From: Acidobacteriota bacterium
GTDB taxonomy: Bacteria > Acidobacteriota > Thermoanaerobaculia > Multivoradales > JAGPDF01
Length of the DNA stretch: 64,000 nucleotides
NCBI GenBank assembly: GCA_014584695.1
Contig: JACTMI010000032.1
Span: forward strand, 105,265-169,264
Direction: 5' to 3'
The notes under the pieces are model-generated. The model was not told the DNA's origin. It saw nothing but the letters and a program-made list of their open reading frames with translations, and did no database searches. The number at the start of each line of letters is the position of its first letter. The first letter of the stretch is position 1. Positions 36,688 through 63,827 of the stretch are shown piece after piece. Position numbers and translations under genes: made by a program.

Positions 36688-36719
36688 GGGCCGGGCAACG
36701 CTATCATCGCGCCGACGCG

Positions 36720-38922: not shown

Positions 38923-38930
38923 CGGCGGAC

Positions 38931-42532: not shown

Positions 42533-42565
42533 ACCGCGATACTCCTGTCGGTCCTGTCCGCGATG

Positions 42566-42626
42566 GAGCCACGGCTCCAGAAGTTCGGGTCCCGGCTCCG
42601 TCCGGCTCCGTGCAGGATCCGGCTCG
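42566..42626. promoter_or_regulatory. Candidate enhancer: palindrome GGAGCC-N2-GGCTCC plus direct repeats CCGGCTCCG, TCCGGCTCCG and ATCCGGCTCG, 50-110 bp upstream of a sigma-54 promoter
   Basis: Read directly. The same TCCGGCTCCGG motif recurs, inverted, upstream of the second precursor gene (44341-44353). Confidence 0.3.
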
Positions 42627-42674
42627 ATTTCCATAACTGCTTTGAAGTGAGTTGTTTGTCGCGTTCGATGCGGT

Positions 42675-42689
42675 TGGCACCGGGGTTGC
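42675..42689 (+). promoter_or_regulatory. Sigma-54 (-24/-12) promoter TGGCAC-cgggg-TTGC
   Basis: Perfect consensus spacing, 83 nt upstream of the precursor A start codon. Confidence 0.65.
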
Positions 42690-42771
42690 CATAGGAAGAG
42701 GCAGAACGGCGAAACCCGCCGGGGCACCTCCGGATGAACCGGCTGGCGCCACACAACGAGGAGCAACGAAA

Positions 42772-43079: not shown

Positions 43080-43181
43080 GCCGGGCGCAGACATCAGGGG
43101 CCGCGGCGGGCGACCGAAAGGTCCCCGCCGCGGCTCTTTCCCTTTCGAGCGGCTGGCAGGTCGGCGCAGGTTGCGCCGGGC

Positions 43182-44309
43182 TCAGCCTTCGCCGGCGAGC
43201 AGGCGCTCCGGATTGAGCCCCTCGAGATCGGGCACCACGAAGCGGCCGTCCTTGCGGATCAGGACGTCATCGAACCAGATCTCGCCGCCGCCGTCGGCCG
43301 CTTCCATCCGCAGCACCAGGTCCCAGTGGACCTGCGAACGGTTGCCGTTGTCCGCGGCGGCGTACGCCTGGCCCGGCGTGAAGTGGATCGAGCCGGCGAT
43401 CTTCTCGTCGAACAGGATGTCCTTCATCGGTGCGGTGATGTGGGGGTTGAAGCCGAGCGCGAACTCGCCGACATGGCGCGCGCCGTCGTCGGTGTCGAGC
43501 AGGCGGTCGAGCGCCTCGCCGGCGCTGCTCGAGGCCTCGACGATGCGGCCGCCGCGAAAGACGAAGCGGACGTTCTCGTGCGTCACCCCGCGGTAGAGCG
43601 ACGGCGTGTTGTAACGGATGGTCCCCTCCACGCTATCGCGCACCGGCGCGGTGTAGACCTCGCCGTCCGGCAGGTTGCGCCGACCGTCGCAGGCCACCGC
43701 GCCGATACCCCTGACGCTGAAGGAGAGGTCGGTGCCCGGAGCGGTGATGCGAACGCGGTCGGCCGCCTCGAGGCGCGCCTTGAGCGGCGCCATGGCGCGC
43801 GACATCCGGGCGTAGTCGAGCGTGCAGACCCGGAAGTAGAGCTCTTCGAAGGCCGCGGTCGAGGTGCCGGCCAGCTGGGCCATCGAGGGACCCGGCCAGC
43901 GGGTCACCACCCAGCGCGTGCGCGGGACGCGAAGGTCCAGGTGGACGCGCTTCCAGAGCAGCGCCTCGAACAGCGCCATCCGCTCGCTCGGCACGTCGGC
44001 GAGCTCCGAGACGTTGTCGCCGCCGCGCAGGCCGATGTAGGCGTCCACCTGGCGCATCACGGCTTCCTCGCCGTCGGCGATCAGCGTCCACTGCTCGGTG
44101 GTCCCGGCCCGCAGCAGCTCGCGGGTCACCGGCGCGCTCTTCAGCAGCACCGCCGGCAGCGCCCCGGCGGCCGCCGCCGCGCGCACCAGGGTGGTCACGA
44201 ACGAGGTCGGCACGTCGATCGCCTCGATCAGCAGCTTGTCGCCCGGAACGAGGGCGCAGGAGTAGCGGACGAGCGTTTCGGCGAGCTTCTGGTGGCGGAG
44301 GTCGGTCAT
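43182..44309 (-). CDS. M29-family aminopeptidase (AmpS/PepS-like)
   Basis: 376 aa from the ATG at 44309; M29-like organisation (HVGEFALG...). It is divergent from and sandwiched between the two precursor genes. Confidence 0.65.
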   Translation of the reverse strand: MTDLRHQKLAETLVRYSCALVPGDKLLIEAIDVPTSFVTTLVRAAAAAGALPAVLLKSAPVTRELLRAGTTEQWTLIADGEEAVMRQVDAYIGLRGGDNVSELADVPSERMALFEALLWKRVHLDLRVPRTRWVVTRWPGPSMAQLAGTSTAAFEELYFRVCTLDYARMSRAMAPLKARLEAADRVRITAPGTDLSFSVRGIGAVACDGRRNLPDGEVYTAPVRDSVEGTIRYNTPSLYRGVTHENVRFVFRGGRIVEASSSAGEALDRLLDTDDGARHVGEFALGFNPHITAPMKDILFDEKIAGSIHFTPGQAYAAADNGNRSQVHWDLVLRMEAADGGGEIWFDDVLIRKDGRFVVPDLEGLNPERLLAGEG

Positions 44310-44522
44310 CGGAGGAGGTCCCGGTGGGGTCGTGCGGCGCCCGGAGCCGGAGCGCGCCGCGGGTTCTCGAAGCAACTCTAGCCGCGATTCGAGCGGCTGG
44401 CTCTTCCGGCATGGAGCGCTCGCTCCATCGATTCGAGCGAGGGCTCCGCTCAGCGCGGCGCCGGCAGGACCGCGGAGCGATGCGCGCGTTGAAAGCATTG
44501 AACTTACGCATTCGAGGCCGAT

Positions 44523-44537
44523 TGGCATCGGGGTTGC
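44523..44537 (+). promoter_or_regulatory. Sigma-54 (-24/-12) promoter TGGCAT-cgggg-TTGC
   Basis: Same architecture and spacing as the 42675 promoter, 82 nt upstream of the precursor B start. Confidence 0.6.
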
Positions 44538-44618
44538 GATAGGGAGAATCGTTCGGCGCACGACGCCGAGCCCGGGCGGGATGAACTCGCCGGGCACGAG
44601 ACCAGAGGAGCAACGCCA

Positions 44619-44928
44619 GTGGAGATGTCACGCGGTGAGATGCAGGACCTGCTGAACAAGTTCGCGTCCCAGAACCCGCAGTATCGCGATGCGCTGATCA
44701 AGGACCCGAAGTCGGTGGTGGAGAAGCAGTTCAACATCAGCCTCTCCGGCGTCACCGTCAAGGCCGTGACCGAGGCCCCCGACACGCTGTACGTGATCGT
44801 TCCGCGTGCTGCGGCGGCCGGTGAGCTCGACGACTCCGACCTCGAGAAGGTCGCGGGCGGCGGCGACATCAACGTCAAGCTGGGCGGCGAGGTCAGCTGC
44901 TCGCAGGGCCCAGATCAACCTCGGCTGA
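44619..44928 (+). CDS. RiPP precursor peptide B (paralog of A, GTG/ATG start); 3' end uncertain (+1 frameshift against the same conserved TGA at 44926-44928)
   Basis: Leader about 85% identical to A and an identical core start DINVKLGGEVSCSQG. Frame 0 would read 345 nt into lanM, which is implausible. Confidence 0.55.
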
Positions 44929-45040
44929 GCCGAGGCGGATCCACGAAGCCCGATTCCGGGGGCCCGTGGACGGGCTGCAAGGCCCGCCACGCGGCCCCCG
45001 GTTGTTTCGTGGGCCCCTGCTCGGAGAACCCAAGCTGGCC

Positions 45041-48000
45041 ATGTCGACGATCGCCACTGCGTGCCTGCGTGCCGAGACGCTGTTCGAGCGGCTCGCGCGG
45101 CTGGCCCGCGCTTTCGACGCTCCTCCGGCCTTGGAGGATGCCGCGGTGGCCGCGGCGCTCGAGCCGTGGCGGCGGGCGGTCGCGCGCGGCGACGGCGAGG
45201 CCTTCGCGCGCCGGCTCGCCTGGGACGGCATCGACCCGCGCGTGGCGGCGCTCGCGTTCGTGGAACCGGTAGGAGCGCCCGACGGCCCATGGTGCGTGAA
45301 CATGGAGCGCTGGCTCCATGCCGTGGCGACAAGGGGTCTCGCGAGCTCCGGCAGCGAGCTCGCCGCCGGGCTGCCGTTCGGAGAGTGGGTCGCCAGCTGG
45401 GTCGCAGAAGCGGCCTCCCGCGCCCGGCAGAAGCTGCCGGCGCTCGACGACCTGCTGACGCCGGCGGCGTGGCTGCAGTGGCAGCGGGCCCTCGGCGGGC
45501 GGCTCGCCTGGATCGCCGCGCTGCCGCTCTACGAGCGCTTCGACCTCGAGCGATCGGCGCGGGGCGAAGCGGGTGCGCTAGCCCGATTTCTCGCGGCGCT
45601 CGGCGCCAGCCCGACGGCGTCCGGCCTCGAGCTGCCGGGACTGGTCCGGCAGCTCGCCGGCCGGGCCGAGGACTGGATCGATGCCGGTGTGGAGTGGATC
45701 GGTCGCTTGGCCGCCGATCGCGCCGGCTTCGCACTCGCCTTCGAGGGGGACGCCGATCCCGGTCGGGTCGTGGCGGTGGAGGCCGGGCTCTCCGATCCTC
45801 ACGCCCGTGGCCGCCGTGTCCTGGCGCTCACCTTCGAGTCGGGGCTCGAGGTGATCTACAAGCCCCGGCCGGTCGACCTGGAGTCGGCCTGGTGGCAGCT
45901 CGCGAGCGAGCTCGCCGAGGCCGGTTTCGAGGCCGCCCCGCTGGCGGCGCGGACGCTCGCCCGGCCGGGCTACGGCTGGATGGAAAGGGTGGCCGCCGGC
46001 GGGGTCGACAGCGCGAGCGAGGCCGAGTCCTGGTTCCGCCGCGCGGGCGCGCTGGTCGCGCTGGCATGGGTGCTCGGCGGCCGCGACCTCCACGCCGAGA
46101 ACCTGATCGCCGACCGGCGCGGACCGGTCCTGGTGGACGCGGAGATGCTGCTCGCTCCGGAGCCGGGCGCGCTGCTGCGCAGCGGCCCCGACTCCGTGCT
46201 GGCGACCGGCCTGGTGGCCGATCCCGCGGCCACGGCGGGGCCCGGAGCCTGGGGCTACGCCGGCCTCGACCTGCCGGAGCCGGGCGAGCTGCCCGAAGCC
46301 GACCGGCACTGGGAGAACCTCGGCACCGACCGGCTTCGGCTGGCCTGGCGACGTTTCCCCAGGGCCCTCAAGACCAACGTTCTGAGGTGGCGCGGGCGGC
46401 CCCAGCGTCCCGAGGCCTGGCGGGAGGCCGTGTTGGAGGGCTTCGACCTCGGCATGGCGGCGATTGGCGAGCAGCGGGAGCGGATCGAGCGCTGGTTGGC
46501 GGCGCGCGGCGACACGCCGACGCGCGTTCTGTTCCGTCCGAGCGCCCAGTACGCGACCACGGTCGCCCTGTCGGTCCGTCCCCGCTACGCCAACGACGGG
46601 CTGGCCGGCAGCCTGCTGCGCGAAGCGCTCCTGCAGCCGCTCGTCGGCCTCGCCGAGCGGCCGGCGCTCTGGCCCCTGATCGCCGACGAGCGGGCCGCGC
46701 TCGAAGCGCTCGACCTGCCGGTCTTCCACCTGCCGGCCGGTGCGACGGCGCTCACCAACTCGGCGGGAGAAAGGATCGAGGGCCTGTTCGAGCAGAGCGG
46801 GATCGCGGCCGCTCGCGCGCGGCTCGCCGAGCTCGACGCGGAGAGAATCGAGCGCGAACGCCGCCACCTCGCGGCCGCGCTCGAGCCGCGCCGGCTCGGG
46901 CGCGCGGAGGAGGAGTCCCGGCTCGCGGCCGCGGCGGCCGAGATCGCCGGCGCGCTGGCGATGTCGAAGGCCTTCGCCGCCGTGCCCGCGCCCGGCGCGT
47001 CGCTGCGCGAGCTCGCCCTCTACGGCGGCGCCGCCGGGCGCGCGCTGTTCGCGGCGGGGGCTTGGCGGGCCACCGGCGGAGCGGCCTGGGCATCGATTGC
47101 CGGAGAGATCGCGTCCGGCCTCGTGCGCGCTCTCGCGGCGGTGCCGGCGGAGGCGGAGGGACAGCCATCACGGCCTGGGGGCACCGACGGCTGGGGCTCG
47201 ATTCTCTGGACCTTGGTCACCCTCGCGGAACTGCTCGAGCAGCCGGAGCTGCTCGCGGGCGCGGCGGCGGCCGGCGAGCGTCTCGAAGCCACGCCACGGC
47301 GGCCGGATCTCTGGGGATTCGACCTCGCCGCGGGCGAGGCGGGGGCGTTGCTCGGCTGGCTGGCCCTGGCGCAGGCGAGCGGGGAGGCCGCGGCGCTCGA
47401 GCGCGCGCGCGACAGTGGGCAGCGGCTGCTGTCGAGCCAGCTCCGGTCGGGTCCGGATGCCGGAGGCTGGCCGGCGCCCGGGGGCTCGCCGCCGCTCGCG
47501 GGCTTCGCGCACGGCGCCTCGGGCATCGCCCGTGCCCTCGATGCGCTGGCGGCCGCGACCGGCGAGGGGGAGTATCGCGACGCGGCCGGCGCGGCGCTGC
47601 GCTTCGAGAGCTCGTTGTTCGATCGCCAGCGCGGGGACTGGCCAGCGCGGATCGCCGGCGGCGGTCGCCGGTTCCTGTGCAGCTGGTGCCACGGAGCGCC
47701 GGGGGTGGCGATCGCCCGCGCGCTCCGGCTGGCGGCAGGGGGCGAGGATCGGGCGGCGGCTACGGAGCTCGCGACGGCGCTCGCCACGCTCGCTGGGGCG
47801 CCGCTGCCCGAAGTCGACCACCTCTGCTGCGGCACGGCGGGACGCCTGGCGGCGCAGACGGTCGCCGGGCGGTGGGGCGGCGGCGAGGAAGCGCTGGCGG
47901 CGGGACGGCGGCTGGCGCGCCGGGCCCTGGCGCGCGCTGAAGGCAGCGGCGGCTGGCGGATTCCGGCCGAGCCGCCGGCGGAGCGTCCGGATCTCGGGCT

Positions 48001-48121
48001 GTTCCGAGGCTACCCGGGCCTCGCCTGGAGCCTGATCTCGCTCACCGACGCGGGCGGACCGCTGCCGCTGGTGGCGGCGCTCGAGCTGCCGGCGGAGCGC
48101 CGCCGGAGGAGCCAGCAATGA
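45041..48121 (+). CDS. lanM: Class II lanthipeptide synthetase LanM (dehydratase plus LanC-like cyclase)
   Basis: Kinase-like dehydratase motifs (DLHAENLIA...VLVDAEM). C-terminal LanC zinc-ligand motifs GFAHGASG, SWCHGAPG and CCGTAG. An alternative GTG start at 44966 is possible. Confidence 0.85.
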   Translation: MSTIATACLRAETLFERLARLARAFDAPPALEDAAVAAALEPWRRAVARGDGEAFARRLAWDGIDPRVAALAFVEPVGAPDGPWCVNMERWLHAVATRGLASSGSELAAGLPFGEWVASWVAEAASRARQKLPALDDLLTPAAWLQWQRALGGRLAWIAALPLYERFDLERSARGEAGALARFLAALGASPTASGLELPGLVRQLAGRAEDWIDAGVEWIGRLAADRAGFALAFEGDADPGRVVAVEAGLSDPHARGRRVLALTFESGLEVIYKPRPVDLESAWWQLASELAEAGFEAAPLAARTLARPGYGWMERVAAGGVDSASEAESWFRRAGALVALAWVLGGRDLHAENLIADRRGPVLVDAEMLLAPEPGALLRSGPDSVLATGLVADPAATAGPGAWGYAGLDLPEPGELPEADRHWENLGTDRLRLAWRRFPRALKTNVLRWRGRPQRPEAWREAVLEGFDLGMAAIGEQRERIERWLAARGDTPTRVLFRPSAQYATTVALSVRPRYANDGLAGSLLREALLQPLVGLAERPALWPLIADERAALEALDLPVFHLPAGATALTNSAGERIEGLFEQSGIAAARARLAELDAERIERERRHLAAALEPRRLGRAEEESRLAAAAAEIAGALAMSKAFAAVPAPGASLRELALYGGAAGRALFAAGAWRATGGAAWASIAGEIASGLVRALAAVPAEAEGQPSRPGGTDGWGSILWTLVTLAELLEQPELLAGAAAAGERLEATPRRPDLWGFDLAAGEAGALLGWLALAQASGEAAALERARDSGQRLLSSQLRSGPDAGGWPAPGGSPPLAGFAHGASGIARALDALAAATGEGEYRDAAGAALRFESSLFDRQRGDWPARIAGGGRRFLCSWCHGAPGVAIARALRLAAGGEDRAAATELATALATLAGAPLPEVDHLCCGTAGRLAAQTVAGRWGGGEEALAAGRRLARRALARAEGSGGWRIPAEPPAERPDLGLFRGYPGLAWSLISLTDAGGPLPLVAALELPAERRRRSQQ

Positions 48122-49092
48122 CGACGCCGCAATTCGAGGTCCGCCGGCTCGCATCGCCGGTCGATCCCGCCTTCAGCGCCATGACCTTTCCGCTCTATCG
48201 CCGCCTGCTTTCGCTCGAGCCGACGGTGCGCCACCCCGAGCAGGGCGACCCGCGGCGGATCCAGCCGGTCGCCATCGGCGCCTTCGAGGCGGAGCGGCCG
48301 GTCGGCCTGATCGTGGCCGAGCAGCCCCTCGGGGACAGCGAGCCGGCGGAGCTGCTCTCCCTGTTCGTGGCCGAGGGCGAGCGCGGCCGGGGGGTCGGAG
48401 GCGCCCTGGTCGCCGCGGCCGAGCAGGCCCTCGCGGCCGCGGGGGTCGCGGAGGTGCGCGCGGTGTGGACGGCCGGCAAGCCGGCGATCGAGGCGCTGGA
48501 GCGGATTCTCGCCCGCCACGGCTGGACGCCGCCGGCGGCCCGCACGGTTTCGGCCCGCTTCCGGCCCGAGAAGATGCTCACCCTGCCGCTGTTCTCTCCT
48601 CGTCACCTGGCGTCCCTGGATCCGGGATTCGAGATCTTCCCCTGGGCGGAGCTGCCGGCCGAGGAGCTCGCCGCCCTGCGCGCCTCGAACGAGGCCCGGC
48701 ACTGGATTTCCGACGGTCTCGAGCCCTGGAGCTACCGCGGCGGCGCCGGCTACGACCCGGCGACCAGCGTCGGCGCGCGCCACCAGGGGCGGCTGGTCGG
48801 CTGGGTGCTGACCGAGCGAATCGACGACCGCCTGCTGCGCTGGACCGTGAGCTTCCTGGACAAGCGTCTGTCCCGGCGCGGCCGCATCGTGCCGCTCTAC
48901 AAGTCGTCGCTCGAGCGGGCGGTGGCGGCGGGCTACGAGCTCTGCCTGTTCGTGACCCCCGTCCGGTTCCCCAACATGGTGCGCTTCATCCACAAGTGGA
49001 TCGCCCGCCGGGCGGAGTTCATCGGCGAGACTCGCTCCGCCGGGCGCCGGCTCACCCCGTCGGGCGCCGGCGCGCCCCGCCTTGAATCCTGA
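48118..49092 (+). CDS. GNAT-family N-acetyltransferase, translationally coupled to lanM (ATGA)
   Basis: GERGRGVGGALV acetyl-CoA-binding motif. The start overlaps the lanM stop. Confidence 0.65.
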   Translation: MTTPQFEVRRLASPVDPAFSAMTFPLYRRLLSLEPTVRHPEQGDPRRIQPVAIGAFEAERPVGLIVAEQPLGDSEPAELLSLFVAEGERGRGVGGALVAAAEQALAAAGVAEVRAVWTAGKPAIEALERILARHGWTPPAARTVSARFRPEKMLTLPLFSPRHLASLDPGFEIFPWAELPAEELAALRASNEARHWISDGLEPWSYRGGAGYDPATSVGARHQGRLVGWVLTERIDDRLLRWTVSFLDKRLSRRGRIVPLYKSSLERAVAAGYELCLFVTPVRFPNMVRFIHKWIARRAEFIGETRSAGRRLTPSGAGAPRLES

Positions 49093-49212
49093 GAGCGGGG
49101 TCGCTAGGATCGCCTCGTCCGAGAACCAGAGCGTTCGAGCCATAGCGGCGGGAGGAGAGGTGGACGTGCTACCGCTTGCGTCAGAGACCCGGGTCCCGAC
49201 AAGGAGGGGCAG

Positions 49213-53324: not shown

Positions 53325-53354
53325 CGCGCCGGCGGCGGGGGAGGAGGCACGGTC

Positions 53355-54512
53355 ATGTTCGGCGGAGGTCCCGAGAAGCTGCTGCGCAAGGCGGCGATCG
53401 AGAAGATGTCGTCGCCGGAGCAGCTCGACATGGCGATGCGGGTGACCTCGCCGATGGGCTGGGTGGCGCTGTCGGCGATCGGGGTGGCCCTGGTCGCCGG
53501 CATCGTCTGGAGCATCGTCGGCCGCATTCCCGAGCAGGTCGACGCGCAGGGGGAGCTGCTGCGCGGGGATCGTGTCGGCGCGGTGACGGCGATCGCCTCG
53601 GGCCGGCTCAAGGACGTGGTCGTCCGCATGGGAGACAACATCGAGGTCGGCGATCTCGTGGCCCGGCTCGCGCTGCCGGACATCGAGGCGCAGATCGAGA
53701 AGGTGAAGGCGGACATCCAGGACCTGGAGGCCCGGCAGCGGGTGCAAAGCGGCGAGACCAGCGCCGTGGTCGCCGGCTACCGGTCCAAGCTCTCCGGGCT
53801 CTACGCGCAGCGCCGCAACATGCAGCAGCTGGTGGAGAAGGGGCTGCGCACGCAGAAGGACCTGCTGCAGATCGACGCCCAGATCGCCGACACGCAGGCC
53901 CAGATCGCCCAGACCCAGGGCGGCAGCGACCAGCGCGACCTCCAGGTCGACGACAAGCGGCGGGAGCTGATCCGGCTCGAGTCCCAGCTGGCCGCGACCT
54001 CGGAGCTGCGCTCCTCGGTACCCGGCAGGGTGGTCCAGATCCAGGTCGCGGCGGGGCAGCCGGTGCAAGCAGGAGATTCGGTCGTGCTGATCGAGGACGA
54101 GAGCCTGCCGCTGCACGCGCTGATCCTGATCCCGGGCGTGCAGGGCAAGCGGGTCGTTCCCGGCATGGAGGTCAAGGTCTCGCCGACCGACGTCAAGTCG
54201 GAAGACCACGGCTTCATGCTCGGCAAGGTGACTTCGGTCTCGGACAACGCCGTGGCGCCGCAGGAGCTCGACCGGATTCTCAACAACCAGGCGAAGACCC
54301 AGAAGTACATGGAGCAGGCCCCTTTCATCGCCTTCGCGGACCTGATTCCGGATCCGGCCCCCGGCAACGTCTCCGGCTTCAAGTGGACCTCCGCTCTCGG
54401 CCCGCCGAAGCGAATCACCAGCGGCACGCCCTGCGTCTTCCAGGTGATCGTCGACGAGCGCCGGCCGATCTCCTACGTCGTCCCGATGGTCAAGAAGACG
54501 CTGGGAATCTGA
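53355..54512 (+). CDS. HlyD-family periplasmic adaptor (NHLP-bacteriocin secretion type)
   Basis: GGAGGAGG RBS, N-terminal transmembrane anchor, long coiled-coil, C-terminal beta-domain. Confidence 0.8.
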   Translation: MFGGGPEKLLRKAAIEKMSSPEQLDMAMRVTSPMGWVALSAIGVALVAGIVWSIVGRIPEQVDAQGELLRGDRVGAVTAIASGRLKDVVVRMGDNIEVGDLVARLALPDIEAQIEKVKADIQDLEARQRVQSGETSAVVAGYRSKLSGLYAQRRNMQQLVEKGLRTQKDLLQIDAQIADTQAQIAQTQGGSDQRDLQVDDKRRELIRLESQLAATSELRSSVPGRVVQIQVAAGQPVQAGDSVVLIEDESLPLHALILIPGVQGKRVVPGMEVKVSPTDVKSEDHGFMLGKVTSVSDNAVAPQELDRILNNQAKTQKYMEQAPFIAFADLIPDPAPGNVSGFKWTSALGPPKRITSGTPCVFQVIVDERRPISYVVPMVKKTLGI

Positions 54513-54525
54513 GCCCGCGCCGCGC

Positions 54526-56736
54526 GTGAGCAACCCCGCCGCCCCGCCCGCCGCCGAGAGCGAGGCCCAGCCCAAGCCGAGCGGTCCGCCCAGCCGGCGG
54601 GTCAAGGTCCCGACCGTCATCCAGATGGAGGGCGTCGAGTGCGGCGCCGCTTCGCTGGCGATGATCCTCGCCTACTTCGGCCGCATCGCGCCGCTGGAGG
54701 AGCTGCGGGTCGAGTGCGGCGTTTCGCGCGACGGCTCCAAGGCTTCCAACCTCCTGAAGGCGGCGCGCAAGTACGGCCTGGAGTCGAAGGGCTTTAAGTA
54801 CGAGATCGAGCAGCTCTTCCCGCTCAAGTTCCCCTGCATCCTGTTCTGGAACGCCAACCACTTCCTGGTGCTCGAGGGCTTCCGGGGTGGCAAGGTCTAT
54901 CTGAACGACCCGGCGCAGGGGCCGCGCGTCATCACCATGGAGGAGTTCGACGCCGGCTTTTCGGGCGTCGTGCTGACTTTCGAGAAGGGGGCGGACTTCC
55001 AGCCCGGCGGCGACAAGCCGAGCATGTACCACGCGCTCCGGCGGCGCCTGGTCGGTTCCGAGGTGGCGCTGCTGTTCGTCCTGCTCTGCGGCCTGTTCCT
55101 GGTCGTGCCCGGACTGGTCATCCCGACGTTCTCGCGCATCTTCGTCGACGAGTATCTCGGCGCCGGCCGTGATTCGATCATCCGCCCGCTGCTGCTGGGC
55201 ATGGGGATCACCGCGCTCCTGAACATGGCGCTGACCGGGCTGCAGCAGCACTCCCTGCTGCGGCTGGAGACCCGTCTGGCGCTCAAGACCTCGGCGCAGT
55301 TCTTCACCCACGTGCTGCGCCTGCCGATCAACTACTTCGCGCAGCGCTTCGCCGGCGAGATCGGCTCGCGCGTGGCGATCAACGACAAGGTGGCGACGAT
55401 GGTCGGCGGCAAGCTCGCCACCACCGTCATCGACTGCATCCTGGTCGTCTTCTACGGCGCGTTGATGTTCCTGTACGACGGCATCCTGACCTCGGTCGTG
55501 ATCGCCCTGGCGTTGGCCAACATCGTGGCGATGAAGCTGGTCCAACGGGTCCGCACCGACGCTTCCCGGAGGCTGCAGGCGGACAAGGGCAAGCTGGTCG
55601 GCACCGCGATGTACGGCTTGAGGATGATCGAGACGCTCAAGGCGACCGGCTCCGAGCCCGAGTTCTTCGCCCGCTGGTCCGGCTACCAGGCCAAGTCGCT
55701 GCGCGCGCAGCAGGAGCTGCAACTCCTCTCCGAGATGATCAATGTGGTGCCGCAGCTGGTGACGACGCTGATCTCGGCGGTGGTCCTGCTGCTGGGCGGC
55801 CTGCGGGTGATGGACGGCGCGCTCACGGTCGGCATGCTGGTGGCCTACCAGACCCTGTCGGGGAACTTCACCAAGCCGCTCTCGAACCTGGTCAACTTCG
55901 GCGGTTCCTTGCAGGAGCTCGAAGCGGACATGAACCGCCTCGACGACGTGCTTCGCTACCCGCAGGACAAGACCTACGAGCGGGAGGACGTCGGCCGCGA
56001 GGACCGCCGGCTCAAGCTGCAGGGCAAGGTCGAGCTGCGCAACGTGACCTTCGGCTACAGCCCGCTCGAGAAGCCGCTGATCGAGGACTTCAACCTGGTC
56101 ATCCAGCCCGGCCAGCGGGTGGCGCTGGTCGGCGCCTCGGGCAGCGGCAAGTCGACGGTGGCCAAGGTCGTCTCCGGCCTCTACGAACCCTGGCGTGGCG
56201 AGGTGCTGTTCGACGACGTGGCCAGGACTCAGCTGCCGCGCCGCCTGCTCACCAACTCCCTGGGCATGGTCGACCAGGACATCTTCATGTTCGACGGCAC
56301 CATCCAGGAGAACGTGACGATGTGGGACGGCACCATCCCGCTCACCGCGGTGTCGACGGCGGCGCGCGACGCCGCCATCGACGAGGTGATCGAGACCCGC
56401 GAGGGGGCGTATGGCGCCAACGTGACCGAAGGCGGCTCGAACTTCAGCGGCGGGCAGCGCCAGCGGCTCGAGATCGCCCGCGCGCTGGTCGGCGGGCCGA
56501 CGGTGCTGATCCTCGACGAGGCGACGAGCGCGCTCGATCCGGCGACCGAGGTGGTGATCGACGACTCGACGCGGCGACGCGGCTGCACCACGATCATCAT
56601 CGCGCACCGCCTGTCGACGATCCGCGACTCCGACGAGATCATCGTCCTCGAGCGCGGCAAGATCGTCCAGCGCGGCACCCACGAAGAGATGAAGGACCAG
56701 GATGGCCCCTATGCCCGGCTCATCGGCGCCCACTAG
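54526..56736 (+). CDS. ABC exporter with N-terminal C39 bacteriocin-processing peptidase domain
   Basis: C39 catalytic Cys in VPTVIQMEGVECGAASLAMILAYFG, 6-TM domain, Walker A GASGSGKST, signature FSGGQRQRL. Confidence 0.85.
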   Translation: MSNPAAPPAAESEAQPKPSGPPSRRVKVPTVIQMEGVECGAASLAMILAYFGRIAPLEELRVECGVSRDGSKASNLLKAARKYGLESKGFKYEIEQLFPLKFPCILFWNANHFLVLEGFRGGKVYLNDPAQGPRVITMEEFDAGFSGVVLTFEKGADFQPGGDKPSMYHALRRRLVGSEVALLFVLLCGLFLVVPGLVIPTFSRIFVDEYLGAGRDSIIRPLLLGMGITALLNMALTGLQQHSLLRLETRLALKTSAQFFTHVLRLPINYFAQRFAGEIGSRVAINDKVATMVGGKLATTVIDCILVVFYGALMFLYDGILTSVVIALALANIVAMKLVQRVRTDASRRLQADKGKLVGTAMYGLRMIETLKATGSEPEFFARWSGYQAKSLRAQQELQLLSEMINVVPQLVTTLISAVVLLLGGLRVMDGALTVGMLVAYQTLSGNFTKPLSNLVNFGGSLQELEADMNRLDDVLRYPQDKTYEREDVGREDRRLKLQGKVELRNVTFGYSPLEKPLIEDFNLVIQPGQRVALVGASGSGKSTVAKVVSGLYEPWRGEVLFDDVARTQLPRRLLTNSLGMVDQDIFMFDGTIQENVTMWDGTIPLTAVSTAARDAAIDEVIETREGAYGANVTEGGSNFSGGQRQRLEIARALVGGPTVLILDEATSALDPATEVVIDDSTRRRGCTTIIIAHRLSTIRDSDEIIVLERGKIVQRGTHEEMKDQDGPYARLIGAH

Positions 56737-59700
56737 CGCGCGCGGCGCGCTCAAGCTGCGCGTCGTCGCGTCGTCGCTCGCCGAGCTGATCGGTCGCGAG
56801 ATCGCCGTCGACCGCGCACCGATGGTGCTGGGCCGGGCCGACGACTGCGACGTGGTGATCGCGGTGCCGAGCGTCTCCCGGCGGCACGCGCAGATCGAGC
56901 GCGTGGGCGAGGATTTCGTCGTCCGCGATGCCGGCAGCGCCAACGGCCTGGTGGTGGCCGGGCAGCGGGTGATGGAGGCGCGCCTGGAGCCGGGCGTCTC
57001 CTTCGCGCTCGGGGACACACACTTCGAGGTCTTCGCCGAGATGCCGCCGGTGCCGCAAGTGCCGGACGTGCCGGCGGCGGCGCTGCCTTTCGCCGTCGAC
57101 CGCACCGCGGCGATCGCTAATCTGTCGGAGATCATCGCCCAGATCGAGCGGCCGCAGCCGCTCGAGGAGCTGGGCGAGCGCATCGTCACCGCCGCCAACA
57201 AGCCGTTCGTGCTCGACGACCCGGAGGTCGCCTGGATCGTCGAGTCGGGCAAGCTCGAGATCTTCACCGTCTCGATCGAGAAGGGCCAGCCGGTCGGTGC
57301 CCGCGACCATTTCCTGACCGTCGAGCCCGGCCAGGCGCTGTTCGGTTTCGACACCGAGCGCTACGGCATGGGGTCGGGCTTCCTGGTGGTCGGCAAGGCC
57401 GGCTCGGTGCTCCGGCGCTTCGATCTGGCACGACTGCTCGACCTGGCCTCGGTGCCCGCGCACGGGCAGCGGATCGGCAAGCTCCTCGACACCTGGATCG
57501 AGGGGCTGTCGCGACGGCTGACGCACGATCTCCCGCGGGTGCCGACGGCCGACCTGATTCTGGAGCGGGGCGCGTCGATGCCCTGGCAGGCCGGACAGAA
57601 GGCCTCGCCGGGGCACGTGGTGCTGTGGGTCGAGCTGCCGGCGGAGCGGTTGCTGTTCGACGGCATGGCGAGCCTCGGTCGCGACCTCGAGGGAGTGCTC
57701 TTTCCGCTCGGACCGACCTGTTGGCTGGAGCTGTTGTCGAGCGAGCACGAGCTCGCGGTGACGCCGCGCGGCGCCGGTGAGTCGGCCGCGGATCCGCGGT
57801 TGTGGGCGGGTCTCGACGTCTTCCACCGCGTGCTCTGCGAGTGCGAGTTCGTCAACAAGAAGCTCGCCTTCGTCGACGAGTTCCAGCGCCTGCAGCGCAA
57901 GGCCGAGCAGGTCGAGCAGGCGCAGGAGAGCGCCTACGCGGCGATCGGCTCGGTGCTCGGCGGTACCGGAGTCTGGATGCGGCCGAGCTCGCTCGGCGTC
58001 GACTCCGGCCCCATCCTCAAGGCCTGCGCGGTGGTCGGCGATGCGCTCGGCATCCAGGTCCGCCCCCATCCCGACGCGCGCGACGAACAGAGCTTCGAGG
58101 ACGCCCTCGGCGGCATCGCCGCCGCGTCACGGTTCAGGACGCGGCGGGTGACGCTGCTCGACGACTGGTGGAATCACGACCAGGGCCCCTTCCTCGGCCA
58201 GCGGGCGGAGACGAAGACTCCGGTGGCGATCGTCCCGACCAGTCCCCGCTCCTACATGCTGGTCGATCCGATCTCGGGCGAACGGGTGCCGATCGACGAG
58301 GAGGTCGCGCGCGGCCTCGAGCCGTTCGCGTGGACGTTCTACCGCTCGTTCCCGCCGGGCGCCCTCAAGGCGCTGGACCTGGTCAAGTTCGGCGCCCGCG
58401 GCCTCAAGGCGGAGTTCCGGACCATCGCGATCATGGGCGCGGCCGTGGGCATGCTGGGCACGCTGACGCCGATGATCTCGGGCAAGGTCTTCGACATCGC
58501 GATCCCGCAGGCGGAGCGGGGGCTGCTCTGGCAGTTCACTCTCGGCCTGGCGCTTTCGGCCTTCTGCTCGGCGGCGTTCAAGATCACGCAGAACATCTCG
58601 TTGATGCGCGTCCAGGGCAAGATGGACTACTCGATCCAGTCGGCGGTCTGGGACCGGCTGATCGACCTGCCGATGGATTTCTTCCGCAAGTACAACTCGG
58701 GCGACCTCGCCGACCGCGCCGCCGGCGTCGACCAGATCCGGTCGATCGTCTCCGGCGCGGGCGTGGCCGCGGTCCTGGGATCGCTGTCGTCGCTGTTCAA
58801 CGCCGCCCAGATGGTGACCTACAGCTTCCAGCTGGCGCTGACGGCGATGGCGCTGACGCTCGTCTACGTCGGGGTCTCCTGGCTGGTCAACTACCTGCAG
58901 TTACGCCACCAGCGCAAGGAGTTCGCGCTGCGCGGCAAGATCAGCGGGCTCGTCCTGCAGCTGATCGGCGGCGTGGCGAAGCTGCGCGTGGCCGGCGCCG
59001 AGGGACACGCCTTCAAGATGTGGGCGACGCGCTTCGCCGAGCAGCGGCGGATCAGCTTCAAGATCGGCGGCATCCAGAACGTCCATCAGATCTTCACCTC
59101 CGGCTACCCGGTGTTGTCGAACATGGCGATCTTCTTCGTCATGTTCACCCTGCGCCAGGGCGCGCTGGAGCGCGGCGAGCAGTTCGACATGACCACCGGC
59201 GACTTCCTGGCCTTCTCGGCGGCGTTCGGCATCTTCACCTCGGCGATGCAAGGGCTGGGCGACGCCTCGCTGTCGATGCTGCGGATCGTGCCGGTGTTCG
59301 AGCGCTTGAAGCCGATTTTGACCACCGAGCCCGAGGTGGACCCCTCGAAGTCCTACCCCGGCCAGCTCAAGGGCGAGATCGAGCTGTCGCACATCTGGTT
59401 CCGCTACTCGGAGGACTCGCCCTGGATCGTCCGCGACCTGTCGCTCAAGATCAAGCCCGGCCAGATGGTGGCCTTCGTCGGCGGTTCGGGCTGCGGCAAG
59501 TCGACGCTGCTCAAGATCATGCTGGGCTTCGAGAAGCCGCAGAAGGGCTCGGCCTACTTCGATGGGCAGGACCTCGCGACGCTCGACTTGCGCATGGTCC
59601 GGCAGCAGCTGGGCGTCGTGCTGCAGGATTCCCGGCTGCTGCCGGCGGACATCTTCCGCAACATCGCCGGCGCCACCTCGCGGACCGTCGACGATGCCTG

Positions 59701-60088
59701 GGCGGCGGCGCAGAAGGCCTCGATCGCGGAGGACATCAAGGCGATGCCGATGGGCATGCACACCGTCGTGTCCGAAGGCGGCGGAGCGTTCTCGGGTGGC
59801 CAGAAGCAGCGTCTGATGATCGCCCGCGCGCTGGTCAACAACCCGAAGATCATCTTCCTCGACGAAGCCACCAGCGCGCTCGACAACCGGGCGCAGGCGA
59901 TCGTGACCGAGAGCATGAATCGGCTGCAGGCGACGCGCATCGTCATCGCTCACCGGCTGTCGACGATCGAGGACGCGGACGTCATCTGCTACCTCGATGC
60001 CGGGCAGATCGTCGAGCAGGGCACCTACGCCGAGTTGATGGCCCTGGACGGCAAGTTCGCGGCCCTGGCGAAACGGCAGCTGGCATGA
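56702..60088 (+). CDS. ABC exporter with N-terminal FHA and cNMP-binding-like domains instead of a peptidase
   Basis: FHA (VLGRADDCDVVIAVPSVSRRHAQIERVGEDFVVRDAGSANGLVV). Beta-barrel-like FVLDDPEVAWIVESGKLEIF...VEPGQALFG. TMD, Walker A GGSGCGKST, signature FSGGQKQRL. Confidence 0.8.
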   Translation: MAPMPGSSAPTSARGALKLRVVASSLAELIGREIAVDRAPMVLGRADDCDVVIAVPSVSRRHAQIERVGEDFVVRDAGSANGLVVAGQRVMEARLEPGVSFALGDTHFEVFAEMPPVPQVPDVPAAALPFAVDRTAAIANLSEIIAQIERPQPLEELGERIVTAANKPFVLDDPEVAWIVESGKLEIFTVSIEKGQPVGARDHFLTVEPGQALFGFDTERYGMGSGFLVVGKAGSVLRRFDLARLLDLASVPAHGQRIGKLLDTWIEGLSRRLTHDLPRVPTADLILERGASMPWQAGQKASPGHVVLWVELPAERLLFDGMASLGRDLEGVLFPLGPTCWLELLSSEHELAVTPRGAGESAADPRLWAGLDVFHRVLCECEFVNKKLAFVDEFQRLQRKAEQVEQAQESAYAAIGSVLGGTGVWMRPSSLGVDSGPILKACAVVGDALGIQVRPHPDARDEQSFEDALGGIAAASRFRTRRVTLLDDWWNHDQGPFLGQRAETKTPVAIVPTSPRSYMLVDPISGERVPIDEEVARGLEPFAWTFYRSFPPGALKALDLVKFGARGLKAEFRTIAIMGAAVGMLGTLTPMISGKVFDIAIPQAERGLLWQFTLGLALSAFCSAAFKITQNISLMRVQGKMDYSIQSAVWDRLIDLPMDFFRKYNSGDLADRAAGVDQIRSIVSGAGVAAVLGSLSSLFNAAQMVTYSFQLALTAMALTLVYVGVSWLVNYLQLRHQRKEFALRGKISGLVLQLIGGVAKLRVAGAEGHAFKMWATRFAEQRRISFKIGGIQNVHQIFTSGYPVLSNMAIFFVMFTLRQGALERGEQFDMTTGDFLAFSAAFGIFTSAMQGLGDASLSMLRIVPVFERLKPILTTEPEVDPSKSYPGQLKGEIELSHIWFRYSEDSPWIVRDLSLKIKPGQMVAFVGGSGCGKSTLLKIMLGFEKPQKGSAYFDGQDLATLDLRMVRQQLGVVLQDSRLLPADIFRNIAGATSRTVDDAWAAAQKASIAEDIKAMPMGMHTVVSEGGGAFSGGQKQRLMIARALVNNPKIIFLDEATSALDNRAQAIVTESMNRLQATRIVIAHRLSTIEDADVICYLDAGQIVEQGTYAELMALDGKFAALAKRQLA

Positions 60089-61272
60089 GTGGGGAGCCTT
60101 CCTCTTCGGTCGATGGGCTCGCCGCCCGGCGCGAGCTTCTGCGCGGCCTGGGCGCCAGCGAGGAGCTGCTCGCCGAGCTGCTCGCCTACACCGAGAACCC
60201 CTACCGCCACCTGGAGCTGCCGGCCGGCACGCCGCCGCTGCCGGCCGAACCCCAGGTCGCGGCCTGGCGGCACGCGGCGGCGGAGGCGGCCGAGTTCGGG
60301 GCGGCGGCGGCGCTGGCGCGGCGCTTCCCGCAGCTCGGCTTCCCGATTCGGGAGGGAATGTCGGAGGATGCGGCCTATCGGGCCGCCACGCGGCGCGGCG
60401 AGTTCGAGCGCCAGCCGGCGCGGCTCCGGCTCGAGCTCGAGCGGCCCGAGCGGCTGGAGCTGTCGATTGCCGAGCTGCCCGCGGGGCCGGTGCCGATCCT
60501 GGTGGCGCCGGCGCGGGCCGATTTCGAGGCGCTGGTGCGCGCTCTGACCTCGCGCAACGAGCCGGTCGAGGTGCCGGCCGCGATGGGCGCCTGCCTGATC
60601 AAGGGCTTGGCGGACTGGGAACGGGTGGCCGAGCACCGGCGCCGGTTCGAGGAGCGGCTCGGCCGCCCCGCCGACGAGCTCGAATGGCAGGCCGAGATGG
60701 CCTCGCTCGCCCAGATCAAGGAGGCGTGGCAGGACCGTCTGATCCTGCTGTCGACCGGCCCTTACAGCGCGGTTCCGGCCGAGGAGGTCGGTCTCGAGCC
60801 GGCCGACTGGAGCGACGCGTCGGTGCGGATCCGCATGGCGCACGAGGGTTTCCACTACCTCACGCTGCGGCTCTGCGGGCGCATCCGGAGCAATCTCCTG
60901 GACGAGCTGATCGCCGATTTCGCCGGCATGTTGGCCGCGTTCGGCGACTACCGGCCGGCGCTCGCACGCCGGTTCCTCGGCGTCGATCGCCTGCCGGCGC
61001 TGCGCGGCGGGGGCCGGATCGAGGTCTATCGCGGGGATCCTGCGCTCTCGGACGCGGCCCTCGCGGTGGTGGCCCGTCTGGCCGCGGCGGCGACCGAGAA
61101 CCTGGCGGCGATCGAGGTCAGCCCGGCCGAGCGCAAGTCGCCGGCGGCGTTGGCCACGCTGCTGTTGGCCCTCGCCAAGCTCGATCTCGAGTGCTTCGCG
61201 AGCCGGGAGTTCCCGCGCCAGTTCGAAGCGGCGCGGGCGGCGGGAACTGGTGGCCAGGAGGCGCGACGATGA
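60085..61272 (+). CDS. Conserved hypothetical protein (395 aa), ATGA-coupled on both sides
   Basis: The ORF is embedded in the operon with start and stop overlaps. No family motif recognised apart from HEGFHY. Confidence 0.5.
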   Translation: MSGEPSSSVDGLAARRELLRGLGASEELLAELLAYTENPYRHLELPAGTPPLPAEPQVAAWRHAAAEAAEFGAAAALARRFPQLGFPIREGMSEDAAYRAATRRGEFERQPARLRLELERPERLELSIAELPAGPVPILVAPARADFEALVRALTSRNEPVEVPAAMGACLIKGLADWERVAEHRRRFEERLGRPADELEWQAEMASLAQIKEAWQDRLILLSTGPYSAVPAEEVGLEPADWSDASVRIRMAHEGFHYLTLRLCGRIRSNLLDELIADFAGMLAAFGDYRPALARRFLGVDRLPALRGGGRIEVYRGDPALSDAALAVVARLAAAATENLAAIEVSPAERKSPAALATLLLALAKLDLECFASREFPRQFEAARAAGTGGQEARR

Positions 61273-61697
61273 CCGAGCTGTTTCGGGGATCCCTCGATCG
61301 TCCCACCCTCGCCGGGCTCGGCCGTTTGCTGGACCGGCTGGCGGAGGCGATGGCGCGGGCCGGTGTCACCACCCGCAGCGCGCAGTCGATCTCGATCGCG
61401 GCCGACGAGCTGGCGAGCAACGTGCTGAATCACCGCGAAGGGCGTGACAAGCCTCACCTCGACCTGGTGCTGCGGCGCCGGGAGGACGGCGCGATCGAGC
61501 TCGAGCTGATCGACGACGGGCCGGAGTTCGATCCGTTCGCGGTCGCCGCGCCGGACGTCACTCTCGGCCTCGAGGAGCGCCCGATCGGCGGGCTCGGCAT
61601 CCACCTCGCCCGCCGCCTCGCTTCCGGCGCGAGCTACCGGCGCGGCGACGACCGCAACCGCGTCGAGCTCCGCTTCGACCCGCCGGCCGCCGGCTGA
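61269..61697 (+). CDS. RsbW/SpoIIAB-like anti-sigma serine kinase (HATPase_c)
   Basis: N-box ADELASNVLNH, G1 DDGPEFD, G2 GGLGIHL, 142 aa. Confidence 0.65.
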   Translation: MTELFRGSLDRPTLAGLGRLLDRLAEAMARAGVTTRSAQSISIAADELASNVLNHREGRDKPHLDLVLRRREDGAIELELIDDGPEFDPFAVAAPDVTLGLEERPIGGLGIHLARRLASGASYRRGDDRNRVELRFDPPAAG

Positions 61698-62795
61698 TCA
61701 GCCGGCGCGAAAGACGAAGCGAACGGTGCCGATCTGGACCCGGTCGCCGTCGCCGAGCTGCCGCTCCTTCACCTTCTCGCCGTTGACGTAGGTGCCGTTC
61801 TCCGAGTTCAGGTCGCGCAGCACGTAGCCACTTTCGGACTGCGCGATCTGGGCGTGGCGACGAGACACCGCCGGCTTGTTGAGCCGGATCTGGTTCTCGG
61901 GCGTGCGTCCGATGAAGGTGAGCGGCTCGAGCGCGAACTCGGTCGCTCCCAGGTCGGTGTCGATCGCGATCAGCTTGCCCTTGACCAGGACGACGGTCTT
62001 GCCGGCGGCCGGGGACGCGCTCGGCGCGGCGGGCGGGGGGACGTCGATCAGGGCCGTCGCTCCGGCCGCGGCGGCCGGCGGCGGCGGTGGCGCCTCGGCC
62101 GCCAGGATCACCGTGCCGTCCGGCTCGCCGGTGGCGTTGGCCGGGGTGGCCGCCGGTGCGGGCGGCGCGACGGCGACCTCGGCGGTGATGCCCAGCGGCT
62201 GGATGACCGGCTGCGGCGCGGTGATGCCGGCATCGACCAGAGGCGGTGGCGGCGGGGTGGCGACCGCGGGCGCGGTGACCGAAGGGGCCGCGACCTCCGG
62301 GACGATCGGAACCGGTGCCGGCGGTAGAGCCGGCGCGGGCGTGGCGAGCTCGGCCTCGGAGTCGAACGCACCGAGGAACTGCTCACGCACCGCCTGCGTC
62401 TCCTCGAGCTGCCGGGTCTGCTCGTCGAGCTTGTCGTCGAGCTCGGAGGCCCGCTTCTTGAACTCACCGTCCTCGAACTCACCGAGGCGATGGCGGAAGT
62501 CGATCTCCTCGCGGTCGAGCTTGGTCGCCTGGTGCTGCGCCTCGATCTTGTCGAGCAGGACCTTGAGCTTGGCGTACTCCTGCCGCGCCTTGTCCTTGAG
62601 CGGGGAGGCCTTGCGCTCTAGGGCGGAGACCCTCGACTCGTAGTCGCGCTTGACCCGGCGGAAGACGACGTCGGTGACCTTGCTCTGGTCTTCGGCCATC
62701 TTGGCCAGCCGGGTCGCGATCGTCTCCCGTTCTCCCTTGATCTCCATCAGCTCGTCGATGACCGAGGTATCGACCTGCTGTAGCTGCTCGAGCAT
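61698..62795 (-). CDS. FHA-domain protein with N-terminal coiled-coil and Pro/Ala-rich linker
   Basis: C-terminal FHA (SRRHAQIAQSESGYVLRDLNSENGTYVNG). Confidence 0.7.
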   Translation of the reverse strand: MLEQLQQVDTSVIDELMEIKGERETIATRLAKMAEDQSKVTDVVFRRVKRDYESRVSALERKASPLKDKARQEYAKLKVLLDKIEAQHQATKLDREEIDFRHRLGEFEDGEFKKRASELDDKLDEQTRQLEETQAVREQFLGAFDSEAELATPAPALPPAPVPIVPEVAAPSVTAPAVATPPPPPLVDAGITAPQPVIQPLGITAEVAVAPPAPAATPANATGEPDGTVILAAEAPPPPPAAAAGATALIDVPPPAAPSASPAAGKTVVLVKGKLIAIDTDLGATEFALEPLTFIGRTPENQIRLNKPAVSRRHAQIAQSESGYVLRDLNSENGTYVNGEKVKERQLGDGDRVQIGTVRFVFRAG

Positions 62796-63281: not shown

Positions 63282-63288
63282 GGGCCAC

Positions 63289-63825: not shown

Positions 63826-63827
63826 CA

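Follow-up and report, generated by a model that had tools for sequence, protein, structure and literature searches.

The closest described counterparts of the system presented here are the selidamides, peptides made on the ribosome and modified after translation (RiPPs) that arise from a precursor with a leader of the NHLP (nitrile hydratase-like) or Nif11 kind, a class II lanthipeptide synthetase (LanM) and a GNAT enzyme that fatty-acylates a lysine or ornithine side chain, and that carry a single methyllanthionine (MeLan) ring (Hubrich et al., 2022, PMC8784127). In phaeornamide, the ring joins Cys4 to Thr7, the Cys being N-terminal of the Thr, and the selidamide GNAT clade already contained Acidobacteria (PMC8784127). 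In the nostolysamide pathway, NpuN acylates Lys1 of NpuA from acyl-CoA (PMC13060382). The locus described here lies in a 64-kb stretch of an uncultured acidobacterium (contig JACTMI010000032.1, positions 105,265 to 169,264), hereafter called the window. It encodes a RiPP of lanthipeptide class II and NHLP type together with a full NHLP export set. Probably, it is an acidobacterial selidamide-type (lipo)lanthipeptide system on an NHLP precursor and export chassis, working by the mechanism proposed below.

As in the kamptornamide (ksp), phaeornamide (pha) and nostolysamide (npu) systems (PMC8784127, PMC13060382), the locus combines an NHLP/Nif11 leader with a LanM of the ProcM type and with a tandem-GNAT homologue of NpuN. 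The single Cys of the core suggests one MeLan ring with the Cys N-terminal of the Thr, as in phaeornamide, the acceptor Lys would lie near the core N-terminus, and export is of the ABC/C39 type. Unlike the selidamide loci, the acidobacterial locus has neither arginase nor hydroxylase. Its core is near-invariant across genera and multiplied as orphan copies in Vicinamibacterales, its precursors each have a dedicated sigma-54 activator, upstream activating sequence (UAS) and promoter, and it adds two TolC-like proteins, an FHA domain on the second ABC subunit (ABC2), a DUF7005 protein and a partner-switching module. The acidobacterial family is, moreover, known from genes alone. An earlier note on this DNA had held the combination of sigma-54 control, an FHA-ABC exporter and a GNAT to be one not recognised from characterised lanthipeptide loci. 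This does not hold as worded, because an NHLP precursor with LanM and GNAT is the defining selidamide design (PMC8784127), and an FHA-bearing ABC exporter is known, outside RiPPs, from Mycobacterium tuberculosis (Rv1747). What is new is the conserved regulon of sigma-54 activator, UAS and promoter, the FHA-bearing exporter, the pairing of DUF7005 with a kinase and a core that is near-invariant across genera. The literature searched contained no description of this acidobacterial precursor family, and nothing specific on sigma-54 (RpoN) with RiPPs or on acidobacterial LanM systems.

A second point of comparison is the prochlorosin system, where one CCG-type LanM, ProcM, serves several Nif11/NHLP-leader precursors, some of them encoded far off, and where export relies on a C39-type ABC transporter. 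The acidobacterial system likewise has a CCG-type LanM, several precursors including distant ones, and C39-type ABC export. However, prochlorosin cores are hypervariable and form several rings, whereas the acidobacterial cores are conserved, have one Cys and go with a GNAT, and the regulation differs.

Because the GC content of the window is ~71%, genes were called by third-position GC first and by hidden Markov model (HMM) tests with Pfam and NCBIfam second. The earlier note had read 42.5-61.7 kb as a sigma-54-driven RiPP locus, and every gene that it named is present where it was placed. The LanM, the leader of the first precursor and the three export subunits score above curated cut-offs, and the models proposed there as a check (TIGR03793, TIGR03794, TIGR03796, TIGR03797, LANC_like and DUF4135) matched both the NHLP leader and the LanM domains. 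The lanM gene (45041-48121, plus strand, alternative start 44966; TIGR03897 468.5 bits, cut-off 304) has, as had been read, a dehydratase part (DUF4135, 255.5 bits) and a LanC part (LANC_like, 113.6 bits). The Zn-ligand motifs of the cyclase are present as GFAHG, SWCHG and HLCCG, which is the ProcM-like "CCG" type. It is joined by an ATGA stop/start overlap, and hence translationally coupled, to the gene of a tandem-GNAT acyltransferase (48118-49092, plus strand; Pfam GNAT 42.8 bits), in line with the coupling noticed earlier. This protein aligns with NpuN collinearly from end to end, with 29% identity over 295 aa (E 5e-40); the NpuN sequence was rebuilt from the supplement to the nostolysamide preprint (PMC13060382, Fig. 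S19), perhaps with the loss of one residue. Its predicted structure is a tandem GNAT (pLDDT 94.6), and its N-terminal half carries a P-loop-like RGRGVG. The C-terminal half gave no Pfam match at E up to 1, and the protein had no match in a PDB sequence search. Since the GNAT is a full-length homologue of NpuN, the set of NHLP precursor, LanM and GNAT corresponds to the known selidamide design, and the enzyme is predicted to be a selidamide-type maturase of the KspN/PhaN/NpuN type.

The precursors belong to a family that was followed by a precursor-alignment scan of 185,579 species-representative genomes. The 97 relatives, at 79 loci, come essentially all from metagenome-assembled genomes (MAGs) of Acidobacteriota (Thermoanaerobaculia, Vicinamibacterales and two odd bins), and the family is essentially confined to this phylum. 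The cleavage motif common to the family is VAGG. Each of the 26 closest homologues has 108 aa and ends in ...VAGGGDINVKLGGxVxCxQGALQTMIQINLG. Among 48 distinct cores, exactly one Cys is found in 47 and a Lys in 45, and all 48 have a Thr or Ser in a G-A-x-N-T-x-h-Q/E-h-N-h tail, the conserved Thr/Ser standing 6-12 residues downstream of the single Cys. In LanM loci that hold a GNAT, a Lys precedes the Cys in every core (22/22), and in both copies of the window it is Lys6 of GDINVK; the only two Lys-less cores beside a LanM are in GNAT-less loci. From this conserved set of Cys, Lys and Thr/Ser, a Cys13-Thr20 MeLan ring and acylation of Lys6 are predicted. That the core hardly varies between genera suggests that the peptide serves signalling or structure and is not part of an antibiotic arms race. 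We regard the family as uncharacterised selidamide-like lanthipeptides of an abundant, mostly uncultured soil and sediment phylum, with an unusually conserved core of one Cys, one Lys and one Thr.

Many precursors in Vicinamibacterales (L056, L059, L062, L068, L069, L073 and others) are orphans that lack a LanM within 10 kb; a 20-kb locus has as many as four of them, and a single genome can have six or more. An identical core, KQDITANCLVLGGTAVSNTVMQLNL, is encoded by 38 precursor copies, most of them with their own sigma-54 promoter and palindrome.

In the window, the two precursor genes are P1 (42772-43079, plus strand), delimited by alignment with its orthologues, and P2 (44619-44928, plus strand), which starts with GTG. 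P1 encodes an NHLP leader, VAGG and the core GDINVKLGGEVSCSQG, and the core of P2 is the same. With TIGR03793 (cut-off 50.9 bits), P1 reaches 52.1 bits, and P2, a clear paralogue with 88% nucleotide identity, 45.9 bits. The twin leaders that had been proposed are therefore there, with an HMM score above the cut-off for P1 and below it for P2; the leader end, given earlier as VAGGG, is VAGG, the third G being the first, variable core residue. What had been missed is a frameshifting truncation of both cores. After 43062, 19 nt are absent from P1, and after 44909, 17 nt (GCGCTGCAGACGATGAT) from P2; in either case this is the stretch encoding ALQTMI, and the full stretch expected at both sites is GCGCTGCAGACGATGATCC. 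These gaps put the ancestral stops out of frame, namely QINLG-TGA in P1 (TGA 43077-79) and the TGA at 44926-28 in P2; the conserved CAGATCAACCTCGGCTGA follows the deletion in the wrong frame. Neither gene has an in-frame stop near the core: the open reading frame (ORF) of P1 runs to 43596 across the antisense M29 aminopeptidase gene, and that of P2 to 45272 across the start of lanM. VAGG, a short core and a stop occur together in 26/26 close relatives and in the independent contig L012, whereas the copies of the window keep VAGG and lose the stop. The presumed ring Thr lies inside the deleted stretch, and only Ser12 and Ser14 are left, beside Cys13.

We lean towards misassembly as the origin of the gaps, at a repeat that P1 and P2 have in common. 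Somewhat less probably, they could be real, one deletion having passed to the paralogue by gene conversion and then been followed by a 2-nt change, which would leave a freshly silenced cluster without product. Indeed, both copies are affected at the same site with unlike lengths (19 vs 17 nt), and the 100 nt upstream of the deletions are 100% identical between P1 and P2, as gene conversion would have it; two frameshifts of different length are, however, not what simple gene conversion predicts. The assembly is also free of errors elsewhere, with no mismatch or gap against independent contigs in 13,916 nt, so that general sloppiness is not the cause of the gaps. Against this, the junctions sit within the only long exact repeat common to P1 and P2, where assemblers fail, and every downstream gene is intact. 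More directly, L012, a metagenomic contig from a separate read set (run SRR14793171), is identical to positions 44586-46955 of the window, with 0 mismatch over 2,370 nt, except for the 17 nt, and carries an intact 108-aa gene. The intact precursor protein (P0008) was found in three sequencing runs, whereas a look-up of the 217-aa read-through ORF of P2 returned no record. Exact-pattern scans of JGI metagenome contigs recovered neither the deletion junctions nor the intact allele and are uninformative on which allele is real. For genome mining, the case calls for caution, as both short precursor genes are corrupted right at a repeat and automated tools would miss them or give a false long core.

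Programmed frameshifting, or long read-through cores as real products, was considered and rejected: the frames are Arg-rich, wrong-frame and run over the antisense M29 gene and lanM, and terminator-like hairpins follow the ancestral stops. The hairpin just 3' of the ancestral stop of P1 (43096-43138, plus strand) is GC-rich, is followed by CUCUUUCCCUUUC and folds at -52.5 kcal/mol (z -4.9, 0/200 shuffles as stable). The one between P2 and lanM (44956-45001, plus strand), also GC-rich and attenuator- or terminator-like, is followed by GGUUGUUU and folds at -65.9 kcal/mol (z -6.8). Both have U-rich tails.

Sigma-54 control of the precursors, proposed in the earlier note, is strongly supported by the sequence comparison. 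A strict -24/-12 motif, TGGCAY-N5-TTGC, occurs only twice in the window on both strands, before P1 (TGGCACcggggTTGC, 42675-42689, plus strand) and before P2 (TGGCATcggggTTGC, 44523-44537, plus strand), each 97 nt before the precursor start. In relatives, it is found at -90 to -110 in 59/112 unique upstream regions, against a background of 0.006 per 250 nt. Farther upstream, an exact palindrome, TGGAGC-N4-GCTCCA, is present at 42564-42579 (TGGAGCcacgGCTCCA), probably the UAS of P1, and at 44412-44427 (TGGAGCgctcGCTCCA), probably that of P2; from the 3' end of each palindrome to the -24 element downstream of it the distance is 95 nt, or 111 nt between their starts. By chance, 0.34 occurrences with no more than one mismatch would be expected. 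The palindrome is conserved in 59/111 upstream regions of relatives at the same distance, ~90-110 nt farther upstream than the promoter, orphan precursors included. It is probably the binding site of the activator, for which a candidate of cognate type is encoded nearby: a sigma-54 enhancer-binding protein (EBP; 39755-41005, plus strand) with a GSFTGA loop (Sigma54_activat 193 bits, residues 78-245), whose adjacent gene is syntenic in relatives. This EBP consists of the AAA+ core and a C-terminal tail only, without receiver or sensor domain; its start is uncertain (relatives have 378-391 aa), and residues 1-78 gave no Pfam match at E up to 1. Taken together, activator, binding site, promoter and the orphan precursor set sharing them give a rare complete view of RiPP regulation.

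Two further copies of the palindrome were seen. A third exact one is located at 45303-45318, ~260 nt into lanM, with no strict sigma-54 motif after it; the activator could use it as a site that acts from downstream or by looping. A copy with one mismatch (TGGAGCGGCTGCTCAA, 40020-40035) is found at the activator gene's 5' end, on the side of the divergently oriented gene of a cyclic-nucleotide-binding FHA protein, and may point to autoregulation.

For export, the NHLP/Nif11 three-gene system provides the template, and the complete set that had been claimed is confirmed: the three genes are contiguous at 53355-60088 in the canonical order, and each product exceeds its equivalog cut-off. They encode an HlyD-type periplasmic adaptor (53355-54512, plus strand; TIGR03794 248.6 bits, cut-off 156.2), ABC1 (54526-56736, plus strand; TIGR03796 1090.4, cut-off 853.3) and ABC2 (56702-60088, plus strand; TIGR03797 893.4, cut-off 709.4). 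The adaptor was matched by Pfam as well. ABC1 has an N-terminal C39 peptidase (Peptidase_C39 120.9 bits) with its motif residues in ECGAAS (Cys), NHFLVL (His) and NDP (Asp). ABC2 matches its model over residues 437-1127 only. In contrast to the canonical system, it has ~436 extra N-terminal residues, with the expected FHA domain at residues 42-104 (55.2 bits) and ~330 residues without assignment. Residues 102-437 gave no Pfam match at E up to 1, and a PDB sequence search with the N-terminus returned FHA matches only, the sole solved precedent being the FHA of the ABC exporter Rv1747 (6cah, 6ccd). The FHA-ABC2 architecture recurs in L017-L020, L102, L038 and others. Rv1747 is an FHA-regulated ABC exporter of M. 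tuberculosis whose kinase is known. The likeness, an N-terminal FHA on an ABC exporter, implies control by Ser/Thr phosphorylation, and L038 even has two FHA-like segments, as Rv1747 does; the differences are another ABC family, another substrate and no RiPP context on the side of Rv1747, as well as its known kinase.

The system further differs from the three-gene template by two added genes for outer-membrane factors and by DUF7005 and rsbW genes coupled behind ABC2. The outer-membrane factors have 687 aa (49213-51276, plus strand; OEP 78.7 bits; signal peptide, long N-terminal half without assignment) and 683 aa (51273-53324, plus strand; OEP 90.4 bits), the start of the second overlapping the stop of the first. 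They had been read as a pair of TolC-like proteins, which stands at the level of the Pfam OEP cut-off (22) and fails at that of TIGR01844 (45.6 and 55.3 bits vs 225.15). They are best described as predicted members of the OEP superfamily, not as typical TolC. Both, at ~685 aa, are ~200 aa longer than typical TolC, and the pair is kept in relatives; the N-terminal ~300 aa of either gave no Pfam match at E up to 1.

Behind ABC2, ATGA overlaps join the genes of a DUF7005 protein (60085-61272, plus strand; 361 bits) and of an RsbW/SpoIIAB-like anti-sigma-type kinase (61269-61697, plus strand; HATPase_c_2 64.5 bits), so that the coupling of an unknown protein and an RsbW-like kinase to the export genes, as first described, is borne out. 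The DUF7005 family has at least 586 members, many of them fused C-terminally to an RsbW-like kinase. H253-E254-x-x-H257 and D273-E274-x-x-A-D278 are invariant in 40/40 homologues and lie on adjacent helices, 239-264 and 271-286, of the predicted model (pLDDT 93.8), which suggests a zincin-like metallohydrolase. Nothing specific on DUF7005 was found in the literature; we flag it as a candidate for a new metallopeptidase with ties to NHLP/Nif11 systems, and the protein fused to the RsbW-like kinase as a candidate target of that kinase. DUF7005 was also seen to close another RiPP-like cluster, in the Chloroflexota MAG contig JBAIGM010002800.1 (L100, 1-10256), beside two Nif11-leader precursors, two JmjC-type hydroxylases, two unknown proteins and an FAD halogenase-like enzyme; this 10-kb contig has no LanM or ABC transporter.

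The remaining signalling genes stand upstream, and the conserved unit is accordingly larger than 42.5-61.7 kb: the genes proposed for that interval are all confirmed, but the unit reaches 5' to near 36.7 kb with a block that had been missed. An FHA-GAF-PP2C (SpoIIE-type) phosphatase (36189-38393, plus strand; SpoIIE 163.5, FHA 68.9, GAF_2 59.9 bits), which adjoins Lon and resembles the RsbU arm of partner-switching systems, is syntenic in L002, L003, L011, L021, L025-L028 and others; since its relatives have ~559 aa, its true start is probably near 36.7 kb. Next come an STAS anti-anti-sigma-like protein (38410-38928, minus strand; 64.4 bits), whose ...DFVTSAGL... places a Ser where phosphorylation usually occurs and whose gene is syntenic in L002, L003 and L011, and a cyclic-nucleotide-binding FHA protein (38931-39863, minus strand; cNMP_binding 74.8, FHA 41 bits), which is next to the activator in relatives. 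After the EBP, a HAD-hydrolase fusion protein (41033-42532, plus strand; Pfam Hydrolase 75.1 bits) has a C-terminal half of ~300 aa with DLRPRN...VDYE. The EBP and HAD-fusion genes overlap by stop and start in L002 and L003 and are co-transcribed in relatives. The C-terminal half (41633-42532) had no Pfam match at E up to 1 and no PDB match. It is a candidate for generating the phospho-threonines that the four FHA proteins read, or a candidate anti-activator partner of the sensor-less EBP. As a side observation, its ...ANADLRPRNAFLD...TMVDYEHC... is similar to two motifs of kinase-fold proteins, the catalytic loop and the DFG-like one. At the other end, an FHA-domain protein of 365 aa (61698-62795, minus strand; 72.9 bits) is convergent with the operon end and occupies the same position in L017, L020, L102 and L103.

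The partner-switching set is complete, with PP2C, STAS and HATPase_c_2 proteins. As in RsbU/RsbV/RsbW and SpoIIE/SpoIIAA/SpoIIAB, a PP2C phosphatase is accompanied by an STAS protein with the conserved Ser and by a HATPase_c_2 kinase. In contrast to both, the locus lacks a sigma-factor gene, DUF7005 is joined to the kinase by coupling or fusion, and the phosphatase has FHA and GAF inputs. Rather than on a sigma-70-family factor, the switch likely acts on the sigma-54 activator or on the exporter.

We propose the following mechanism. The sensor-less sigma-54 activator would bind TGGAGC-N4-GCTCCA ~95 nt upstream of the -24/-12 promoter and drive each precursor gene, and read-through of the hairpin would transcribe a ~17-kb operon, lanM-GNAT-OEP-OEP-hlyD-ABC1-ABC2-DUF7005-rsbW. 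The intact precursor of 108 aa would consist of an NHLP leader of ~81 residues ending in VAGG, followed by the core GDINVKLGGEVSCSQGALQTMIQINLG. The ProcM-like LanM would dehydrate the conserved Thr20 and close one methyllanthionine ring to the sole Cys, Cys13, and the NpuN-like tandem GNAT would use a fatty acyl-CoA to acylate the conserved Lys6 on its epsilon-amino group. Cleavage after VAGG would then fall to the C39 domain of ABC1, and ABC1/ABC2, HlyD and the two TolC-like proteins would move the product across both membranes. Finally, output may be gated by phospho-signalling through four FHA proteins (ABC2 included), the PP2C/STAS/RsbW-like partner switch, the cNMP-binding protein and the DUF7005 HExxH protein, which is often fused to the kinase.

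Several points weigh against this reading. The window as it stands encodes no intact precursor, the presumed ring Thr being deleted, and the 45.9 bits of P2 are below the TIGR03793 cut-off. Dehydration, ring closure and acylation are all deduced from sequence. The GNAT has only 29% identity to NpuN, and several related LanM loci that have no GNAT within 6-7 kb still keep the core Lys. NpuN itself takes acetyl-CoA too in vitro (PMC13060382). A simple terminator scan gave 0 matches, despite the strong hairpins seen on folding. As to the signalling part, no HMM identified a protein kinase to feed the FHA domains, and the annotated stretch of 33-64 kb has no sigma-factor gene.

Some of these points would suit a plain, non-lipidated lanthipeptide bacteriocin, with a GNAT that merely acetylates the peptide or gives self-protection. 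Besides the use of acetyl-CoA by NpuN, the activity of the nostolysamides is not altered by acylation (PMC13060382), some related LanM loci have no nearby GNAT, and Pfam sees a generic acetyltransferase domain only. We nevertheless hold this to be unlikely: the homology to a long-chain Lys acyltransferase is collinear over the full length, with a shared tandem-GNAT fold, Lys stands before Cys in all 22 GNAT-containing loci, and the GNAT is translationally coupled to lanM. Moreover, unlike in diversifying bacteriocins, the core is near-invariant across genera, and a single one recurs identically in 38 copies.

That the FHA-ABC2, DUF7005, RsbW-like, PP2C, STAS and cNMP-FHA genes form an unrelated signalling or secretion system, merely placed beside the lanthipeptide genes, is very improbable: for none of these proteins has a part in making RiPPs been demonstrated and the DUF7005 family is large (at least 586 members), but ABC2 matches the NHLP export subunit at equivalog level, stop/start overlaps tie ABC2, DUF7005 and rsbW, the block is syntenic in Thermoanaerobaculia loci with FHA-ABC2 and DUF7005 again in L102 and in the Vicinamibacterales locus L038, and DUF7005 also occurs in the Chloroflexota Nif11-precursor cluster.

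Beyond the selidamide-type assignment, one may speculate further on function. Instead of an antibiotic, the peptide might be a lipopeptide that Acidobacteriota secrete as a dedicated signal or surface-active factor, made by a sigma-54 regulon of scattered identical precursor genes and released through an exporter gated by phospho-threonine signalling (FHA on ABC2) and the partner switch. DUF7005 might then be a structurally unprecedented family of HExxH peptidases serving NHLP/Nif11 RiPPs, in leader disposal or regulatory proteolysis. This extended view, taken as a whole, is a tentative one and rather doubtful.

An M29 aminopeptidase gene (43182-44312, minus strand; Peptidase_M29 170 bits) lies between P1 and P2, as first noted, convergent with P1. 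Its minus-strand position and its absence from most related loci had been overlooked; only in the closest clade (L005, L021, L024) is it flanked by twin precursors. A role as pathway enzyme was rejected, the gene being on the opposite strand, without an evident signal peptide and absent from most related loci, and M29 is probably a passenger.

The segment 50085-64000 of the window is 100.000% identical to independent contigs (L103-L106), over up to 13,916 nt, and such contigs were assembled independently from at least five sequencing runs. The exact DUF7005 protein of the window is indexed in 79 blocks of the sequence collection. The organism is a widespread clonal, or repeatedly sequenced, uncultured acidobacterium.

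Outside the conserved unit, the window has ordinary chromosomal genes, and Rfam at gathering thresholds gave 0 matches across it. At ~15700-28000, GC is lower (0.66-0.70 vs ~0.72) and few ORFs have a strong third-position GC bias; the genes recognised there are all ordinary (DUF1579, Lgt, lumazine-binding, RibD_C, DUF1801, YebC). Beyond the terminal FHA protein, the minus strand at 62847-63840 encodes a DCC1-like thiol-disulfide oxidoreductase and a 4HBT acyl-CoA thioesterase, and contigs L017, L020 and L103, which are from the same species, show this gene order too. It is conceivable that this thioesterase is tied to the supply of the acyl donor.

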